Assembly (NCBI GenBank): GCA_964016885.1
Contig: CAXHJY010001565.1
Location: 1-64,000 of the forward strand
DNA: 64,000 nt
From: Eledone cirrhosa
Taxonomy: Eukaryota
Reading direction: 5' to 3'
Part shown: positions 13,947 through 63,922 of the stretch, in pieces
Layout of the letters: every line of letters starts with the position of its first letter
Position numbering within the stretch: position 1 is the first letter of the stretch
Notes under the pieces: model-generated
Told to the model about the DNA's origin: nothing
The model's database searches: none
The model's input: the letters and a program-made list of their open reading frames with translations, nothing else
Made by a program: the position numbers and the translations under genes

Positions 13947-14350
13947 TTAGGATATGCGACGGCTGGAGAGAAATGAGGCAAGCATGCTCCGTTGGATGTG
14001 CAGTGTAAATGTGCGTGAACGACCCAGCATAAATGTGTTGAGAGAGAAACTGTGTCTGAGAGGGATAGAATGTAGTGTACGGGAGAGGAGACTGAGGTGG
14101 TATGGACATGTGATGCGCATGGAGGATGACCGATGGGTGAAGAAGTGCCAGGAAATGCCAGTTGAAGGAAGACGTGGTAGAGGTAGACCACGAAAAACAT
14201 GGGCGGAGGTGGTGAGAACAGACCTCAGATCATTGAAGCTCACGGTGGAGATGACGAGGGACGGTGACGAGTGGAGAGATGCTGTGCTGAATAAGACCCG
14301 TCCCACCCTTGCAAGCAGGGAAAAGCGGACATAAAATGATGATGATGATG
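13947..14350 (+). mobile_element. RTE-clade LINE 3' end
   Basis: MLRWMC..RRLRWYGHVMRM..GRGRPRKTW..W; ends in (ATG)n. Confidence 0.9.
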
Positions 14351-14585
14351 GAACGGTGGGATACACTATGGTCACCCAGATATTAGACCAAGTAATACAG
14401 AATGGAGTCACACCAAATGACTGACGTAGCAGCATCATCATTAACTGTTACAAGGGTAAAGGAGATGCCCTAGATAAGGGAAACTATAGAGGCATTAAAT
14501 TAATTGACCAGGTCATGAAGGTCACAGAAAAAGTTATAGCACAACTAATCAGAGAGAGAATTGATCTAGATGAAATGCAGTTTCA
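14351..14585 (+). mobile_element. RTE RT N-terminal fragment
   Basis: IINCYKGKGDALDKGNYRGIKLIDQVMKVTEKVI..QF. Confidence 0.85.
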
Positions 14586-14707
14586 TATATATATATATAT
14601 ATATATATAAATATATATATATTATATATATATATATATATATAAATATATATATATATAAATATATATATATGTGAGAAAAACCGCAGACCCTCCATCT
14701 CAACTCA

Positions 14708-14745
14708 CCTTTTGAAAAGCAGAAGAACTGCGAAACCGGTAGAGG
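14708..14745 (+). ncRNA. Degenerate type I hammerhead
   Basis: CCTT-TTGAAAA-GCAG-AAGAA-CTGC-GAA-ACCGGT-A-GAGG; stems intact, two substitutions in the CUGANGA core. Confidence 0.6.
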
Positions 14746-14923
14746 AACTAAATAAATAAATATATATATTTTTTTAAAAAATAAGACTCCAGTTGCATTT
14801 TCAATTTCATCTCTTTTTCTTTATACTTTCACTCGTGTAGGACACCTCGGTTATATTTCATTTTGTAAAATAAACCTCCACACCCCCCACTGCAGGGGGG
14901 GGGGGGGGGCATATCATATATAT

Positions 14924-15120
14924 AAGTGGTAACACAGCAGTTAGTTCACCATACCGAGAACAATTGTTTCACCTTAGCGGAACCTCAGCTCGGGATCCGC
15001 TAAGGTGAAACAATTGTTCTCGGTATGGTGAACTAACTGCTGTGTAACCACTTCTACCTAACTCGTCCCATGGACTGAGTGCTCTACCACTACGGATATT
15101 ACCTACCAGTGTTCTACCTC

Positions 15121-15121
<1 letters not shown>
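14924..15121. mobile_element. Miniature hammerhead foldback (58-bp arms 14924-14981 and 14996-15053, plus ~68-nt tail)
   Basis: Minus strand 14954-14993 CCGAG-CTGAGGT-T-CC-GCTAA-GG-T-GAA-ACAATTGT-T-CTCGG; flanked by (TA)n. Confidence 0.75.
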
Positions 15122-15158
<37 letters not shown>

Positions 15159-22445: not shown

Positions 22446-22712
22446 AATAATTCTCGAAAATTGGTGAATAATTTCGAAAGAGATCAAAATGGAGAATAAA
22501 ATTGAAGAATTTTGTGAAATAAGAGAAGCTATATGATAGAGGTAGGAAGTAGTAGGGTGGGAGTGGTTGGTATGGTGGGTGATGTAGTATGGTAGAGGGG
22601 GATATAAATATTAACAAATAAAGAAAAAAAAATTAGCATGCGAATATGTATGTGGGTATGTATGTACATATGTATATATATATATGTATGTATATGTATG
22701 TATATATGTGTG

Positions 22713-22744
<32 letters not shown>

Positions 22745-24243
22745 TATAAGTATACATGTGTGTATATATATATATATACACACATATATATACTTAAATA
22801 TATATATATACTTATAAGTATATATATATACATATATATATATACATATATACATATACATATACACATATACATATATATATACATATATATATACATA
22901 TATATATACATATGTATATATATACATATATATATATATATACATACATATATATATACATATATATATATATATACATACATATATATATACATATATA
23001 TATACATACATATATATATACATACATATATACATACATACATATATATATACATACATATATATATATATATATACATACATATATATATACATATATA
23101 TATACATATATATATACATATGTATATATATACATATATATATATATATACATACATATATATATACATATATATATACATACATATATATATACATACA
23201 TATATACATACATACATATATACATACATATATATATATACATACATATATATATACATACATATATATATACATACATATATATATACATACATATATA
23301 TATACATACATATATATATACATATATACATACATACATATATACATACATACATATATACATACATACATATATATATACATATATATATACATATATA
23401 TATACATATATATATACATATATATATACATATATATATACATATATATATATACATATATACATATACATATATATATATTGAAACAAAATGAAAACGA
23501 AATTTCATTTCTCACTCTTAGTATGGCACTTACTTAAATGTAAGTATGCATGTATACGTACATACATATATGTATACAGACGTACAGTAGCATGCACATA
23601 TATATATATATATACATATATACATACAATGCATACAGGTACACATACATATATGCACGTATCAGTTTAGCGGCGCTAACGTCGCTTTGTTCGTTTGTAA
23701 ACAAACTGAACAGCCTGAATTTATGCCATACGGTGTTAAGGCAACCACGTCACCTTTTTGTTCAACACTGACACAGGAACGATGTACTAGTTTCAAGCTT
23801 GTTACGTATCATCAGCCACCGTTTACCCATCTGCCAGATAGTTGAACGTTCGAAAGTATATACTTTCCTATGAAAATTAACGGCTGAGCAGCCTAATTTG
23901 CATATTGAGTGAGTTAAATCGGTCAGGCATACCGAAAACGATAAATTGAAACAAAATGAAAACGAAATTTCATTTCTCACTCTTAGTATGGCACTTACTT
24001 AAATGTAAGTATGCATGTATACGTACATACATATATGTATACAGACGTACAGTAGCATGCACATATATATATATATATACATATATACATACATATGCAT
24101 ACAGGTACACATACATATATGCACGTATCAGTTTAGCGGCGCTAACGTCGCTTTGTTCGTTTGTAAACAAACTGAACAGCCTGAATTTATGCCATACGGT
24201 GTTAAGGCAACCACGTCACCTTTTTGTTCAACACTGACACAGG

Positions 24244-24288
24244 AACGATGTACTAGTTTCAAGCTTGTTAGCTATCATCAGCACCGTT
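24244..24288 (-). ncRNA. Type I hammerhead (also at about 23778 mutated, 24710, 25176, 25642, 26108, 26574)
   Basis: Reverse complement of 27062-27106. Confidence 0.9.
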
Positions 24289-27061
24289 TACCCATCTGCC
24301 AGATAGTTGAACGTTCGAAAGTATATACTTTCCTTATGAAAATTAACGGCTGAGCAGCCTAATTTGCATATTGAGTGAGTTAAATCGGTCAGGCATACCG
24401 AAAACGATAAATTGAAACAAAATGAAAACGAAATTTCATTTCTCACTCTTAGTATGGCACTTACTTAAATGTAAGTATGCATGTATACGTACATACATAT
24501 ATGTATACAGACGTACAGTAGCATGCACATATATATATATATATACATATATACATACATATGCATACAGGTACACATACATATATGCACGTATCAGTTT
24601 AGCGGCGCTAACGTCGCTTTGTTCGTTTGTAAACAAACTGAACAGCCTGAATTTATGCCATACGGTGTTAAGGCAACCACGTCACCTTTTTGGTCAACAC
24701 TGACACAGGAACGATGTACTAGTTTCAAGCTTGTTAGCTATCATCAGCACCGTTTACCCATCTGCCAGATAGTTGAACGTTCGAAAGTAAATACTTTCCT
24801 TATGAAAATTAACGGCTGAGCAGCCTAATTTGCATATTGAGTGAGTTAAATCGGTCAGGCATACCGAAAACGATAAATTGAAACAAAATGAAAACGAAAT
24901 TTCATTTCTCACTCTTAGTATGGCACTTACTTAAATGTAAGTATGCATGTATACGTACATACATATATGTATACAGACGTACAGTAGCATGCACATATAT
25001 ATATATATATACATATATACATACATATGCATACAGGTACACATACATATATGCACGTATCAGTTTAGCGGCGCTAACGTCGCTTTGTTCGTTTGTAAAC
25101 AAACTGAACAGCCTGAATTTATGCCATACGGTGTTAAGGCAACCACGTCACCTTTTTGTTCAACACTGACACAGGAACGATGTACTAGTTTCAAGCTTGT
25201 TAGCTATCATCAGCACCGTTTACCCATCTGCCAGATAGTTGAACGTTCGAAAGTATATACTTTCCTTATGAAAATTAACGGCTGAGCAGCCTAATTTGCA
25301 TATTGAGTGAGTTAAATCGGTCAGGCATACCGAAAACGATAAATTGAAACAAAATGAAAACGAAATTTCATTTCTCACTCTTAGTATGGCACTTACTTAA
25401 ATGTAAGTATGCATGTATACGTACATACATATATGTATACAGACGTACAGTAGCATGCACATATATATATATATATACATATATACATACATATGCATAC
25501 AGGTACACATACATATATGCACGTATCAGTTTAGCGGCGCTAACGTCGCTTTGTTCGTTTGTAAACAAACTGAACAGCCTGAATTTATGCCATACGGTGT
25601 TAAGGCAACCACGTCACCTTTTTGTTCAACACTGACACAGGAACGATGTACTAGTTTCAAGCTTGTTAGCTATCATCAGCACCGTTTACCCATCTGCCAG
25701 ATAGTTGAACGTTCGAAAGTATATACTTTCCTTATGAAAATTAACGGCTGAGCAGCCTAATTTGCATATTGAGTGAGTTAAATCGGTCAGGCATACCGAA
25801 AACGATAAATTGAAACAAAATGAAAACGAAATTTCATTTCTCACTCTTAGTATGGCACTTACTTAAATGTAAGTATGCATGTATACGTACATACATATAT
25901 GTATACAGACGTACAGTAGCATGCACATATATATATATATATACATATATACATACATATGCATACAGGTACACATACATATATGCACGTATCAGTTTAG
26001 CGGCGCTAACGTCGCTTTGTTCGTTTGTAAACAAACTGAACAGCCTGAATTTATGCCATACGGTGTTAAGGCAACCACGTCACCTTTTTGTTCAACACTG
26101 ACACAGGAACGATGTACTAGTTTCAAGCTTGTTAGCTATCATCAGCACCGTTTACCCATCTGCCAGATAGTTGAACGTTCGAAAGTATATACTTTCCTTA
26201 TGAAAATTAACGGCTGAGCAGCCTAATTTGCATATTGAGTGAGTTAAATCGGTCAGGCATACCGAAAACGATAAATTGAAACAAAATGAAAACGAAATTT
26301 CATTTCTCACTCTTAGTATGGCACTTACTTAAATGTAAGTATGCATGTATACGTACATACATATATGTATACAGACGTACAGTAGCATGCACATATATAT
26401 ATATATATACATATATACATACATATGCATACAGGTACACATACATATATGCACGTATCAGTTTAGCGGCGCTAACGTCGCTTTGTTCGTTTGTAAACAA
26501 ACTGAACAGCCTGAATTTATGCCATACGGTGTTAAGGCAACCACGTCACCTTTTTGTTCAACACTGACACAGGAACGATGTACTAGTTTCAAGCTTGTTA
26601 GCTATCATCAGCACCGTTTACCCATCTGCCAGATAGTTGAACGTTCGAAAGTATATACTTTCCTTATGAAAATTAACGGCTGAGCAGCCTAATTTGCATA
26701 TTGAGTGAGTTAAATCGGTCAGGCATACCGAAAACGATAAATTGAAACAAAATGAAAACGAAATTTCATTTCTCACTCTTAGTATGCATATGTATGTATA
26801 TATGTATATATATATATATATGTGCATGCTACTGTACGTCTGTATACATATATGTATGTACGTATACATGCATACTTACATTTAAGTAAGTGCCATACTA
26901 AGAGTGAGAAATGAAATTTCGTTTTCATTTTGTTTCAATTTATCGTTTTCGGTATGCCTGACCGATTTAACTCACTCAATATGCAAATTAGGCTGCTCAG
27001 CCGTTAATTTTCATAAGGAAAGTATATACTTTCGAACGTTCAACTATCTGGCAGATGGGTA

Positions 27062-27106
27062 AACGGTGCTGATGATAGCTAACAAGCTTGAAACTAGTAC
27101 ATCGTT
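27062..27106 (+). ncRNA. Type I hammerhead (also at 27528, 27994, 28460, 28926)
   Basis: AACGGTG-CTGATGA-T-AGCT-AACA-AGCT-T-GAA-ACTAGT-A-CATCGTT: 7-bp stem I, palindromic stem III, predicted cleavage after GUA at 27099. Confidence 0.9.
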
Positions 27107-29223
27107 CCTGTGTCAGTGTTGAACAAAAAGGTGACGTGGTTGCCTTAACACCGTATGGCATAAATTCAGGCTGTTCAGTTTGTTTACAAACGAACAAAGC
27201 GACGTTAGCGCCGCTAAACTGATACGTGCATATATGTATGTGTACCTGTATGCATATGTATGTATATATGTATATATATATATATATGTGCATGCTACTG
27301 TACGTCTGTATACATATATGTATGTACGTATACATGCATACTTACATTTAAGTAAGTGCCATACTAAGAGTGAGAAATGAAATTTCGTTTTCATTTTGTT
27401 TCAATTTATCGTTTTCGGTATGCCTGACCGATTTAACTCACTCAATATGCAAATTAGGCTGCTCAGCCGTTAATTTTCATAAGGAAAGTATATACTTTCG
27501 AACGTTCAACTATCTGGCAGATGGGTAAACGGTGCTGATGATAGCTAACAAGCTTGAAACTAGTACATCGTTCCTGTGTCAGTGTTGAACAAAAAGGTGA
27601 CGTGGTTGCCTTAACACCGTATGGCATAAATTCAGGCTGTTCAGTTTGTTTACAAACGAACAAAGCGACGTTAGCGCCGCTAAACTGATACGTGCATATA
27701 TGTATGTGTACCTGTATGCATATGTATGTATATATGTATATATATATATATATGTGCATGCTACTGTACGTCTGTATACATATATGTATGTACGTATACA
27801 TGCATACTTACATTTAAGTAAGTGCCATACTAAGAGTGAGAAATGAAATTTCGTTTTCATTTTGTTTCAATTTATCGTTTTCGGTATGCCTGACCGATTT
27901 AACTCACTCAATATGCAAATTAGGCTGCTCAGCCGTTAATTTTCATAAGGAAAGTATATACTTTCGAACGTTCAACTATCTGGCAGATGGGTAAACGGTG
28001 CTGATGATAGCTAACAAGCTTGAAACTAGTACATCGTTCCTGTGTCAGTGTTGAACAAAAAGGTGACGTGGTTGCCTTAACACCGTATGGCATAAATTCA
28101 GGCTGTTCAGTTTGTTTACAAACGAACAAAGCGACGTTAGCGCCGCTAAACTGATACGTGCATATATGTATGTGTACCTGTATGCATATGTATGTATATA
28201 TGTATATATATATATATATGTGCATGCTACTGTACGTCTGTATACATATATGTATGTACGTATACATGCATACTTACATTTAAGTAAGTGCCATACTAAG
28301 AGTGAGAAATGAAATTTCGTTTTCATTTTGTTTCAATTTATCGTTTTCGGTATGCCTGACCGATTTAACTCACTCAATATGCAAATTAGGCTGCTCAGCC
28401 GTTAATTTTCATAAGGAAAGTATATACTTTCGAACGTTCAACTATCTGGCAGATGGGTAAACGGTGCTGATGATAGCTAACAAGCTTGAAACTAGTACAT
28501 CGTTCCTGTGTCAGTGTTGAACAAAAAGGTGACGTGGTTGCCTTAACACCGTATGGCATAAATTCAGGCTGTTCAGTTTGTTTACAAACGAACAAAGCGA
28601 CGTTAGCGCCGCTAAACTGATACGTGCATATATGTATGTGTACCTGTATGCATATGTATGTATATATGTATATATATATATATATGTGCATGCTACTGTA
28701 CGTCTGTATACATATATGTATGTACGTATACATGCATACTTACATTTAAGTAAGTGCCATACTAAGAGTGAGAAATGAAATTTCGTTTTCATTTTGTTTC
28801 AATTTATCGTTTTCGGTATGCCTGACCGATTTAACTCACTCAATATGCAAATTAGGCTGCTCAGCCGTTAATTTTCATAAGGAAAGTATATACTTTCGAA
28901 CGTTCAACTATCTGGCAGATGGGTAAACGGTGCTGATGATAGCTAACAAGCTTGAAACTAGTACATCGTTCCTGTGTCAGTGTTGAACAAAAAAAAAAAA
29001 AAAAAGGTGACGTGGTTGCCTTAACACCGTATGGCATAAATTCAGGCTGTTCAGTTTGTTTACAAACGAACAAAGCGACGTTAGCGCCGCTAAACTGATA
29101 CGTGCATATATGTATGTGTACCTGTATGCATATGTATGTATATATGTATATATATATATATATGTGCATGCTACTGTACGTCTGTATACATATATGTATG
29201 TACGTATACATGCATACTTACAT

Positions 29224-29387
29224 ATATATATACATATACATATATATATACATATACATATATATATACATATACATATATATATACATATATATATACA
29301 TATATATATACATATATATATACATATATATATATATATACATATATATATACATATATATATATATATACATATATATACATATAC

Positions 29388-29418
<31 letters not shown>

Positions 29419-29447
29419 CATATATATACATATATATATATATATAC

Positions 29448-29489
<42 letters not shown>

Positions 29490-29545
29490 GTATATATATA
29501 TACATGTATATATATGTACATGTATATATATACATGTATATATAT

Positions 29546-29592
<47 letters not shown>

Positions 29593-29628
29593 CATGTATA
29601 TATATATACATGTATATATATATACATG

Positions 29629-29663
<35 letters not shown>

Positions 29664-29773
29664 GTATATATATATACATGTATATATATATACATGTATA
29701 TATATATACATGTATATATATATACATGTATATATATATACATGTATATATATATACATGTATATATATATAC

Positions 29774-29804
<31 letters not shown>

Positions 29805-29966
29805 CATATATATATATACATATATATATATACATATATATATATACATATATACATATATATATACATATATATATATATACATATATATACATATATA
29901 TATATACATATATATATATACATATATATATACATATGTATATATATATATATATGTATATATATC

Positions 29967-30008
<42 letters not shown>

Positions 30009-30013
30009 TATAC

Positions 30014-30072
<59 letters not shown>

Positions 30073-30406
30073 TATACATATATATATATACATATATATA
30101 TATACATATATATATACATATGTATATATATACATATGTATATATATATATATATATGTATATATATCTATATATATATGCATATATATCTATATATATA
30201 TATATATATGCATATATGTATATATATATATATATGCATATATGTATATATATGCATATATGTATGTATATATATATGCATATATGTATGTATATATATA
30301 TGCATATATGTATGTATATATGCATATATGTATGTATATATATATGCATATATGTATGTATATATATATGCATATATGTATGTATATATATATGCATATA
30401 TGTATG

Positions 30407-30441
<35 letters not shown>

Positions 30442-31190
30442 GCATATATGTATATATATGCATATATGTATATATATATATACATATATGTATATATGTA
30501 TATATATATATGCATATATGTATATATATATATATATGCATATATGTATATATATATATGCATATATGTATATATGTATATGCATATATGTATATATATA
30601 TATGCATATATGTATATATATATATATGCATATATGTATATATATATATGCATATATGTATATATATATATGCATATATGTATATATATATATGCATATA
30701 TGTATATATATATATGCATATATGTATATATATATATGCATATATGTATATATATATATGCATATATGTATATATATATATGCATATATGTATATATATA
30801 TATGCATATATGTATATATATATATGCATATATGTATATATATATATGCATATATGTATATATATATATATGCATATATGTATATATATATATATGCATA
30901 TATGTATATATATATATGCATATATGTATATATATATATGCATATATGTATATATCTATATATATATATGCATATATGTATATATATATATATATATATG
31001 CATATATGTATATATATATATATATATATGCATATATGTATATATATATATATATATATATGCATATATGTATATATATATATATATATGCATATATGTA
31101 TATATATATTATGCATATATATATATATGCATATATGTATATATATATGCATATATATATGTATATATATATGCATATATATATATATAT
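29224..31190. repeat. (TA)n with TACA/TGCA interruptions
   Basis: Direct reading. Confidence 0.95.
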
Positions 31191-31191
31191 A

Positions 31192-31713
31192 TAAAATAAA
31201 GTTAAATAAAAGTCAAATGATTAAAATTTAGCTTCGTTTATTACTGCTATATATATTTCAGTGACAGCCATCTTTGGCTGTGACCTCTTCAGGCAGTTTG
31301 AATTAGTGTGGTATAGACAGGTACATATGTTGTTTAGGTGTATGATATTGTCAATACTCTGATATGCCCAGTTCCTTGCTGGGTTGTTAATTCACTGGGG
31401 AACTGGAGTCATATCAGAGCACAACCCAGCAAGGAACTGGGCATATCAGAGTATTGACAATATCATACACCTAAACAACATATGTACTTGTCTATACCAT
31501 ACTAATTCAAACTGCCTGAAGAGGTCACAGCCAAAGATGGCTGTCACTGAAATATATATAGCAGTAATAAACGAAGCTAAATTTTAATCATTTGACTTTT
31601 ATTTAACTTTATTTTACACTACTCCGGAGTAACCAAACCAACCTGCGCACTTCGTCGAGTGCTCCAGCCTGCATACTGAGGTGTTGGTATACAACCAACA
31701 TAAACTCAAAATC
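31192..31713. mobile_element. ORF-less pLTR foldback: 196-bp inverted arms (31192-31387 and 31421-31616) plus ~96-nt tail, HHR on both strands
   Basis: + strand 31511-31565 ACTGC-CTGAAGA-GGTCACAGCCA-AAGA-TGGCTGTCACT-GAA-ATATATAT-A-GCAGT; mirror copy at 31243-31297. Confidence 0.88.
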
Positions 31714-32310: not shown

Positions 32311-33385
32311 TAAGTTAATCCGGGTTGATTCGGAGGTAACCACAGTAAGTAAGGTACTCAATACATAGCAGTGTATAAAAGTTTTAATATAGAAGAGCTT
32401 CTACAGGACTAAAACTGTTTCATTTGTGAGAAATCATCAGGAAGCTGGCTGTCCAAGTAAATATGGTGGTATTTATATCTTTCCTTATCTGGTGGTAGGA
32501 GAGGGTGGGGATTGGGATGGGTGTAGCTCATTGCTTGAAGGATTTAAAGAAAAGGGAGTTCATTAAAAGCTAATTCTTTAAAGCTATAGTATTAACAAAG
32601 GCAGGAAGAATACTGTAAACCTAATCATATTTGGAATACCAATTCTAGTTTATCACTTAGACTAACAATGCCTGTAAGACAGGTGTCTACAGGATAGGTG
32701 GGGTTCAATGGTTTAAAGGAAAGGGAAATTCTTTAGAAGCTAATTCTTTAAGGCTGAAGTAAGAGTGACAAAGGCAGAAAGGGTTCCATCAACAGATTCA
32801 AGTGCTGGGGTGAAACCCCTTATTGTGAAGTTTCTCTTAATATATATTCTAGGTGTTGACAAGCACATTCATACACTCGCTCACTTACACCCGTAAGCGA
32901 CAACAACAAAAAGACTTATATCGGAATTACATCCAACAATTTTAAGACCCGGTGGTATACCCATACCCACTCATTCAAAAGACTGGACAAATCCAAACAG
33001 ACAACACTCGCCTCCTATGTCTGGAACCTCAAGCGGAACTCCACCCCTTTCATGATCAAATGGAAGTTACTACAGAGAGCGCTCTCATACATCGGAGGAC
33101 ATAAGTGTTGTGACCTTTGTATTTCAGAGACCTATGAAATACTATTTGCCAAGGACCCAACACTGAACAAACTCTCTGAACACAGCCCAAATTGCATGCA
33201 CAAAAACTTTGCAGCATACAAATATTTCAAACCAGTCTTGCACCAAAACGATAGTTTTCACAAAAACGTCATTCAATACATCACCAGAAAATGTATAAAT
33301 ACCACCATATTACATAGACAGTAGGCTTTCCTGGTGATTTCTTCTGAATGAAACATTTCTAGTCCTGTAGAAGCCATTTCTATAT
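32311..33385. mobile_element. PLE remnant(s): - strand pLTR with HHR (32397-32445) and + strand GIY-YIG 3' end with a mutated HHR (33325-33374)
   Basis: GCTTC-CTGATGA-TTTCTCACAAAT-GAA-ACAG..CTGT-A-GAAGC; the + copy reads CTGGTGA. Confidence 0.75.
32870..33324 (+). pseudogene. PLE GIY-YIG endonuclease C-terminal fragment
   Basis: KTYIGITSNNFKTRWYTHTHSF..TTLASYVWNLK..IKWKLL..CDLCISE..LNK.SE..CMHK. Confidence 0.85.
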
Positions 33386-41322: not shown

Positions 41323-41385
41323 ATTTCATTATACATATTTCAAGGACACCAAGTTAAATGATGGTGTGCTTTCATCAGATAAAAT
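41323..41385 (-). ncRNA. Type I hammerhead in a pLTR-like element (about 41280-41460)
   Basis: ATTTTAT-CTGATGA-AAGCACACCA-loop-TGGTGTCCTT-GAA-ATATGTAT-A-ATGAAAT. Confidence 0.8.
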
Positions 41386-62611: not shown

Positions 62612-63150
62612 ACACACACACACACACACACACACGATGGCTGCAAACTCACTCTAAGAGTATTGCAATCGCTTGTCAGATTCAGATGTGGGACGCTCGG
62701 ATATGGCTTTTCAAGCCTGCTTGATACTTGCACTCCTTCACACACTGACGAAAACTATGGATCTCCCTGGCTTGAGGTCCCGCATCAGGTTGCCCGTGAA
62801 CCCTCACAACACCGTGGAGATCATAGTTCACTGGTTCTCTTTGAACATGGCAGCGACTGTGGCTCCTGAGACCAGATTTGCTCAAGCAAATCTTTCCACA
62901 CTCAGGGCACTTCAATTCAATGGAGACACCGATCGCTTCGAGAGATACACCAGGGCATTGCTTACACACATCCCGTTTGATCTTCTCGTGCTCTATGTGT
63001 CTGTCCTCAAAATTATGGACCCCATCATTCACCATTCCACGCCAAGTTTCTCTTTCAAGAGCTCCTATCTCCCAGTCAGCCATCATCAAACCATTTTTTT
63101 TCAATGAGTCCTTTACACAATCCTTGAATCGGAGCCTTGGCCACCAGGGC
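62612..63150 (-). mobile_element. RTE (BovB-like) LINE 3' end with C-terminal C2H2 finger(s)
   Basis: PRLRFKDCVKDSLK..WE..A.ER..WR..CPECGKICLSKSGLRSHSRCH..CKYQAGLKSHIRASH; (GT)n tail. Confidence 0.8.
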
Positions 63151-63314
63151 CCATTTTATTAATTGAGATAGGGTACAACACCCTAAAACCAGCCATGATA
63201 ATAATACACCAAGTGTGCTTGTGTATCGATATATATGGTTTGAATTTGTATAGTTCTCTGTACTAATTGTTCATTGAGTAACTTAATCAATATGCATTTA
63301 TATGTATAGATTTA

Positions 63315-63346
<32 letters not shown>

Positions 63347-63349
<3 letters not shown>

Positions 63350-63920
63350 TTTCTGAATTTGTTTAGCAAGATTCTTTATCTGAAAACGTGTGTTGAAACC
63401 GATATTGTTATACTTTGGGAGGGTCATGTTGCCAATAAGAAACACACGCACCAGTTGCTTTCACTCCAATTTATTATAAATTAAATTTATAAATTTAAGA
63501 ATTTATAAATTTCCGGTTGGTTGGTTGGTTCCACAACCGGACGGTTGTTCAAATATTGTCAAAGTTCTTTCGTCACACATTCTGTGACCTCTTCAGTGAC
63601 TGGATTCTTTTCTCTGTTTTGTGCCTCTCCTTTGTTCTGTCCTACGCCATCTTGTAATAACACAAAAACAAGATGGCGTAGGTCAGGACAAAGGAGAGGC
63701 ACAAAACAAAGAAAAGAATCCCCAGTCACTGAAAAGGTCACAGAATGTGTGACGAAAGAACTTTGACAATATATGAACAACTGTCCGGTTGTGGAACCAA
63801 CCAACCAACCGGAAATTTATAAATTCTTAAATTTATAAATTTAATTTATAATAAATTGGAGTGAAAGCAACTGGTGCGTGTGTTTCTTAATGGCAACATG
63901 ACCCTCCAAAGTATAACAAT

Positions 63921-63922
<2 letters not shown>
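63347..63922. mobile_element. ORF-less foldback of the same PLE pLTR family as 3442-5963 (arms 63402-63655 and 63668-63922; tail 63347-63401)
   Basis: Strong similarity to 5640-5963; intact HHR on - (63558-63600); CTGAAAA-mutated HHR on + (63725-63767). Confidence 0.9.

Follow-up and report, generated by a model that had tools for sequence, protein, structure and literature searches.

The 64,000-nt window of Eledone cirrhosa analyzed here (assembly GCA_964016885.1, contig CAXHJY010001565.1, positions 1 to 64,000) holds, at 23481-29223, an array that we read as one insertion of a non-coding hammerhead family with paired long and short ends. With a probability of roughly 0.8, it was copied into a TA microsatellite in trans by the RT/GIY-YIG of a Penelope-like element (PLE). 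The geometry of the insertion, its fixed ends, the rule by which they pair, the target and the missing coding capacity were all observed directly.

The array and the fixed ends of its family

The array is built from a 466-nt non-coding unit, present in 7.1 copies and, head-to-head with these, in 5.2 inverted copies (Table 1), and the two arms overlap by 5 nt (26782-26786). Unit positions are numbered such that 466 falls at the outer left end of the array. An earlier note on this DNA described a left arm reaching 57 nt beyond the right one, and the alignment of the arms agrees: 23535-23538 corresponds to 29223-29226, and the right arm stops at 29223. One base of the 57-nt tail is common to the AT flank, hence a spacing of 56-57. 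The tail holds a short AT-rich hairpin of non-significant folding (z -1.4). The RNA of the whole unit is low in GC and predicted to be strongly self-paired (z -8.8), and its longest Met-to-stop frames have 48 aa in sense and 112 aa in antisense, the latter across the TA tract. Twenty-five nt at the left junction recur at the right one, a possible duplication between flanks that are themselves microsatellite. In a single unit, the last one of the right arm, an A5 run has grown to A16-17 (28990-29006).

Table 1. Positions of the array, its sister families and the PLE-related features in the window
Feature	Positions	Strand	Description
F2 copy	1876..2222	-	420-nt unit, 79% identical; two-end rule as in the array family
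PLE-A, 5'-truncated coding PLE	3442..5963	+	RT/GIY-YIG frame (4171-5418) between an inverted pLTR arm, which starts at 3442, and a pLTR whose hammerhead lies at 5709
F3 3' fragment	6075..6217	+	466-nt unit; hammerhead with compensatory stems
Foldback, 3' end of another PLE family	14921..15124	+	hammerhead core broken
Left flank	22657..23480	.	compound (TA)n/TACA microsatellite
Long-end arm	23481..26786	-	7.1 x 466-nt units, hammerhead sense on minus; inner end at unit position 423
One-sided tail	23481..23537	-	57 nt, left arm only; bounded by the two fixed ends (unit positions 410-413 and 466-472)
Example hammerhead	24244..24288	-	7-bp stem I, CUGAUGA, 4-bp stem II, GAAAC-UA-GUA; predicted cut after unit position 162
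Array hammerheads, six	24281-26611	-	motif scan
Short-end arm	26782..29223	+	5.2 inverted copies; inner end at unit position 311
Array hammerheads, five	27069-28933	+	motif scan
Right flank	29224..31191	.	compound (TA)n microsatellite
Foldback, third family	31192..31713	+	hammerheads on both arms
Foldback, PLE-A-like pLTR	63347..63922	-	79-83% identical to PLE-A pLTR

By a motif scan, 11/12 array units contain an intact, outward-facing hammerhead of the minimal type I; in the outermost unit on the left, stem II carries two substitutions. Rfam gave no matches at gathering thresholds, and the hammerhead calls depend on the motif scan. On these calls, the array has the consecutive units (at least two, each with a type I hammerhead) by which metazoan non-LTR retrozymes are recognized. 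Two sister families, F2 and F3, have the hammerhead type and the 3' architecture of the array family. F2 gave 3620 first-look candidates and at least 8 head-to-head pairs of a long and a short end, and F3 shares its long end with the array family and likewise has units in tandem and inverted arms. A further hammerhead-like motif, with an 8-bp stem I, lies at 41330-41378 on the minus strand.

The family was searched for across the genome with the unit, and the best 40 of 258 candidates were scored (44 matches). The sample comprises 32 ten-kb stretches round matches, the window, its continuation (which holds no unit) and four extensions; the loci are the best matches to a junction-spanning query, a bias towards multi-unit arms. 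In the 32 stretches and the window, we curated 58 arm ends by hand. Thirty-three lie at unit positions 460-472, 21 at 404-414 and 4 elsewhere, which places 54/58 in two end windows that make up 5% of the unit (P about 1e-64). This count leaves aside microsatellite noise in the window, matches to F2 and F3, duplicates at L040 and L048, three short pieces (one at L049, two at L060, all canonical) and two array ends that were not reached. The check proposed earlier, fixed against random ends, thus comes out in favor of fixed ones. Genome-wide, exact patterns recover 1018 long-end and 729 short-end junctions, with none for reversed-pattern controls; since the patterns contain an AT run, they are no test of target preference. 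Set beside 6252 read-through copies, these 1747 exact junctions describe a dispersed, mobile family, in which the two fixed ends are spaced by 56-59 nt. The alignment on one unit of 3533 and 22 contigs from two public contig sets gave no informative end clusters, and two further sets yielded no contigs.

The two ends occur together in a strict manner. On contig C1 up to 314 Mb there are 71 short and 100 long ends, forming 47 neighboring pairs within 10 kb and leaving 77 ends unpaired. All 47 pairs are head-to-head and join one long with one short end, as do all two-armed insertions in the fetched loci (19/19). Either arm can be the longer, the long-end arm being so in only 10/19 fetched pairs. 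At the inner junctions of the fetched loci, the two arms overlap by 100-157 nt in three cases and lie 572 nt apart in one. Two long-end arms, of 41 and 61 nt (L036:930-970 and L049:4323-4383), consist of the tail alone and are partnered by multi-unit short-end arms.

All 54 canonical ends enter (AT)n, compared with 13% of 22000 random positions, and polyA is seen at 0/54. Neither of two refuting signs named in advance, polyA and a lack of microsatellite preference, is thus present. The (TA)-rich setting ascribed earlier to the array, the coding PLE and the three foldbacks is likewise found for all of them. Informative shared flank strings, looked for as traces of target-site duplication (longer than 4 bp, when present, in metazoan non-LTR retrozymes), occur in 6/19 true pairs and 38/342 mismatched pairs, the flanks being microsatellite. 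In a search for an empty site, none of the 40 scored candidates matched the left flank of the array over its full length; what recurs is a 200-nt repeat. Stacks of retrozyme and PLE copies in one microsatellite are frequent (L046:5936-5990, L062, L082, L087). A SINE-like repeat with a (GAT)n end (12181-12511) often lies, by eye, beside TA runs, and microsatellite targeting in this genome may perhaps extend to elements other than PLEs; the ends of this repeat were positive in 1/24 and 0/24 cases under a strict AT test that is too stringent for compound microsatellites.

Coding PLEs and foldbacks

The coding PLE of the window, PLE-A, has arms ending at 3442 and 5907 and a tail at 5908-5963. With 101 scored matches at 99-100% amino-acid identity and some frames near 1300 codons, it is by its identity and open frames a young family. 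It carries a C-terminal GIY-YIG, and by eye the linker and the CCHH motifs point to what PMC8557442, in its available text, defines as the Neptune/Nematis type. In an alignment of 42 rows, 3 read through and 1 was spurious; among the 38 true ends, 37 lie at 5906-5907 or 5962-5963 (18 short and 19 long), and the 6 head-to-head pairs are all long plus short.

One-sided tails had also been noted in other elements of the window, and they are there: 56 nt in the coding PLE and 55, 68 and 97 nt (96 claimed) in the foldbacks at 63347, 14924 and 31192. The spacing is thus 56-57 in the array, 56 in PLE-A, and 68, about 77 and 97 in other PLE families. The three foldbacks, rather than being further non-coding elements, very probably represent coding PLE families truncated to one end, because of the pLTR identity of the 63347 foldback, a GIY-YIG-like frame upstream of the 14924 family at 2/21 oriented loci, and a copy of the 31192 family (L197) whose tail reads on into a PLE-like frame. 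They display the local PLE footprint and bring no extra evidence for mobilisation in trans. Nor do all elements have the outward-facing hammerheads described for them. The array does, as do the coding PLE and the 31192 foldback, where the scan finds intact cores on both arms; the 63347 foldback has an intact core in the minus arm only (the plus arm reads CTGAAAA), and the 14924 foldback in neither arm, other copies of its family carrying CTGAGGA.

Two more pieces of PLEs lie in the window. At 32311-33380 there is a truncated PLE with a GIY-YIG frame (32860-33324) and an inverted arm that bears the tail of roughly 77 nt, and 14676-14890 is a 3' piece of a Neptune-type family, of which L187 contains a long copy flanked by a pLTR on either side.

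Mobilisation and alternative readings

The array and its sampled copies do not have the RT plus GIY-YIG frame of their own that characterizes autonomous PLEs. They have the marks of PLE-type insertions: an adjacent inverted 5'-truncated copy, a one-sided tail, and an AT-rich or microsatellite target without polyA. From its sequences, the family appears to behave like a PLE passenger rather than an autonomous PLE. The proposal that its RNA is mobilised in trans by a PLE RT/GIY-YIG gains support because neither 33 ten-kb stretches nor 30 sister-family loci show an RT/EN ORF contiguous with the unit, and because a profile of the three sister families matches no PLE pLTR among 103 regions downstream of GIY-YIG matches. 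The fixed ends, the (AT)n target, the missing polyA and the same two-end rule in PLE-A point in the same direction. With blastn and the profile, we found no sequence link from unit to pLTR in 30 PLE-A loci, 30 of the 150 listed GIY-YIG loci and the 103 downstream regions, which sample part of the PLE families. All strong profile matches inspected (7/7) were separate neighboring insertions, parted by microsatellite or another repeat arm; the others were TA-tract noise.

PLE-A is the leading candidate partner, solely for its matching tail spacing and its youth. The tails of the array and of PLE-A have no evident sequence or fold in common, and hammerhead stem III differs between the array unit and PLE-A. 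Folding six tails revealed no common or significant structure (z +1.1 to -1.5), and only the F3 end folded well (z -3.8).

In the mechanism we propose, the endonuclease would nick both strands of (AT)n, and each 3' end would serve as primer for a cDNA begun at one of two sites inside the unit, which lie 56-59 nt from each other and enclose the tail. Each cDNA would run a variable distance along a template of more than unit length, which could be a self-cleaved and circularised monomer or dimer or else an uncut multimer, and the two cDNAs would be joined head-to-head. If the hammerhead cuts where predicted, the arms from a cut linear monomer could reach about 310 and 250 nt and no more, hence about 560 for the two. 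Spans exceed 600 nt in 40/47 C1 pairs, none of 38 inner ends in the fetched loci lies at unit 155-170, and one variant, private among the sampled loci, runs through all 18 full units of the two arms at C27. A template longer than the cut monomer, circle or homogeneous multimer, fits these sequences.

A more specific version is possible, if rather tentative: the retrozyme RNA would be a circle without sequence tie to its host element, with two internal starts at the PLE-A spacing, and a PLE dimer would nick both (AT)n strands and lay down one rolling-circle cDNA per site, leaving one long and one short end per two-armed insertion.

Local tandem amplification after insertion may add units, as long heterogeneous arrays and period-2 variants indicate. 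Two very long single-direction arrays on C4, with at least 44 full units (L190+L052+L191, about 305.64-305.66 Mb) and at least 34 (L058+L192, about 352.45-352.47 Mb), are heterogeneous, with on average 7.9 and 3.4 differences within, and are possibly satellites or source loci. At L033 and L037 variants alternate every second unit, and in L033 unit lengths do so too, as expected of a dimer template or of amplification in dimer steps.

Among the alternatives, the one that survives best, although we consider it unlikely, is that the unit is the pLTR of an unsampled autonomous PLE family, with arrays that arose in cis as tandem pLTRs or 5'-truncated copies. The three foldbacks of the window are most likely such truncated PLE ends, a derivation of retrozymes from pLTRs is given in the accessible text of Li, Clavereau and Pollet 2026 (bioRxiv 10.64898/2026.07.22.740005), and our sample covers 30 of 150 listed GIY-YIG matches and 30 PLE-A loci. 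However, there is no ORF in arrays of up to 44 or more pure units, nor in either multi-unit arm; the PLE frames near F1 and F2 copies were parted from them in the seven cases mentioned above; and the tandem non-coding form is retained in three sister families.

Less probable is a process at the DNA level, by which a minisatellite or a Helitron-like or foldback element would acquire its ends through recombination of the internal TA tract with flanking microsatellites. It would draw on the TA-rich palindrome that the unit has immediately ahead of its short end, on the two of 58 arms that end inside the TA tract (non-canonical ends number 4/58) and on the very long arrays. Against this, short ends come after specific sequence at 404-414, outside the pure (AT)n tract, and long ends sit 56 nt into unique sequence. 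Moreover, inner ends in the fetched loci are scattered from unit 21 to 467, with no fixed 5' end or terminal repeat of fixed length, and compensatory changes preserve the hammerhead stems across F1, F2 and F3. Mobilisation of the RNA by a LINE (RTE, CR1 or similar), with inversions from twin priming, an L1-type mechanism that yields them, is largely refuted and the least probable of all, since the 54 ends have no polyA, the second start lies at a fixed point inside the unit, and the two arms span the same sequence. LINE-like reverse transcriptase fragments do occur in the window (frames 13947-14447 and 62682-63155, by eye), and Cervera and de la Pena (PMC7229834, in its available part) name LINEs as possible partners, but a PLE obeys the same long plus short rule as the array family (47/47), and the portions available of PMC8557442 and PMC11167929 present the tail as a feature found only in PLEs.

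Known systems and meaning

Non-LTR retrozymes were defined by Cervera and de la Pena 2020 (PMC7229834; review PMC7761336), who, in the text available, regard PLEs as strong candidate partners. The array resembles metazoan non-LTR retrozymes in its tandem non-coding units of a few hundred bases, each with one type I hammerhead, its low GC, its self-paired RNA and the presence of PLEs in the genome. It differs in the inverted arms, the tail and the fixed paired ends, for which the accessible parts of the descriptions (PMC7229834 and the preprint) offer no counterpart, and in a hammerhead of the minimal PLE type, whose cleavage is here predicted from the motif. In the available text of Li et al. 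(bioRxiv 10.64898/2026.07.22.740005), 24/57 Xenopus retrozyme families match repeats, nearly all of them PLE; unlike for these, no pLTR homologue of the unit was found among the PLE loci sampled.

The likeness to insertions of endonuclease-bearing PLEs, as far as it can be drawn from the accessible parts of PMC8557442 and PMC11167929, is close: tandem copies, the adjacent inverted 5'-truncated copy, the tail at one end, the microsatellite or AT-rich target and the position of the hammerhead close to the 3' end. Craig et al. 2021 (PMC8557442, in part) report the inverted copy, a tail of 30-40 bp, a (TA)n bias and non-autonomous Chlamys elements. According to the portions available of Frangieh et al. 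2024 (PMC11167929), an anole PLE in vitro cuts both strands of AT-rich DNA, two internal starts define the tail, the PLE protein is predicted to be a dimer and hammerhead cleavage is dispensable in vitro. In contrast, the array is without RT or GIY-YIG, many full units are possible in both of its arms, and the strict long/short pairing is unstated in those portions. The family's tail, at 56-59 nt, exceeds the published 30-40, yet in the array it equals the 56 of the local PLE-A. MRC1-type non-autonomous Chlamys PLEs (PMC8557442, in part) are algal and of a clade without canonical hammerheads; they generally resemble their partner at the 3' end, whereas no such likeness was found for the array unit.

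In the sources available to us, this class of element, the tail and the link to PLEs are already published. The literature searched, main texts with few from subscription journals, contains no report of a tail or of paired ends for any retrozyme, nor of strict pairing of ends.

For the enzyme that moves animal retrozymes, the published case for PLEs, in the accessible texts, consists of co-occurrence and pLTR similarity. The present family adds the junctions of its insertions, which bear the PLE footprint more than a thousand times over, and the 47/47 pairing of long with short ends constrains how PLEs integrate. If the rolling-circle version is true, obligatory paired priming would account for the structure typical of PLEs at large, an inverted copy with a one-sided tail, and the unit would be a 466-nt RNA cassette insertable in trans by PLE proteins. 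As a young PLE family with intact frames resides in the same genome, both questions are approachable by the published in vitro assay.
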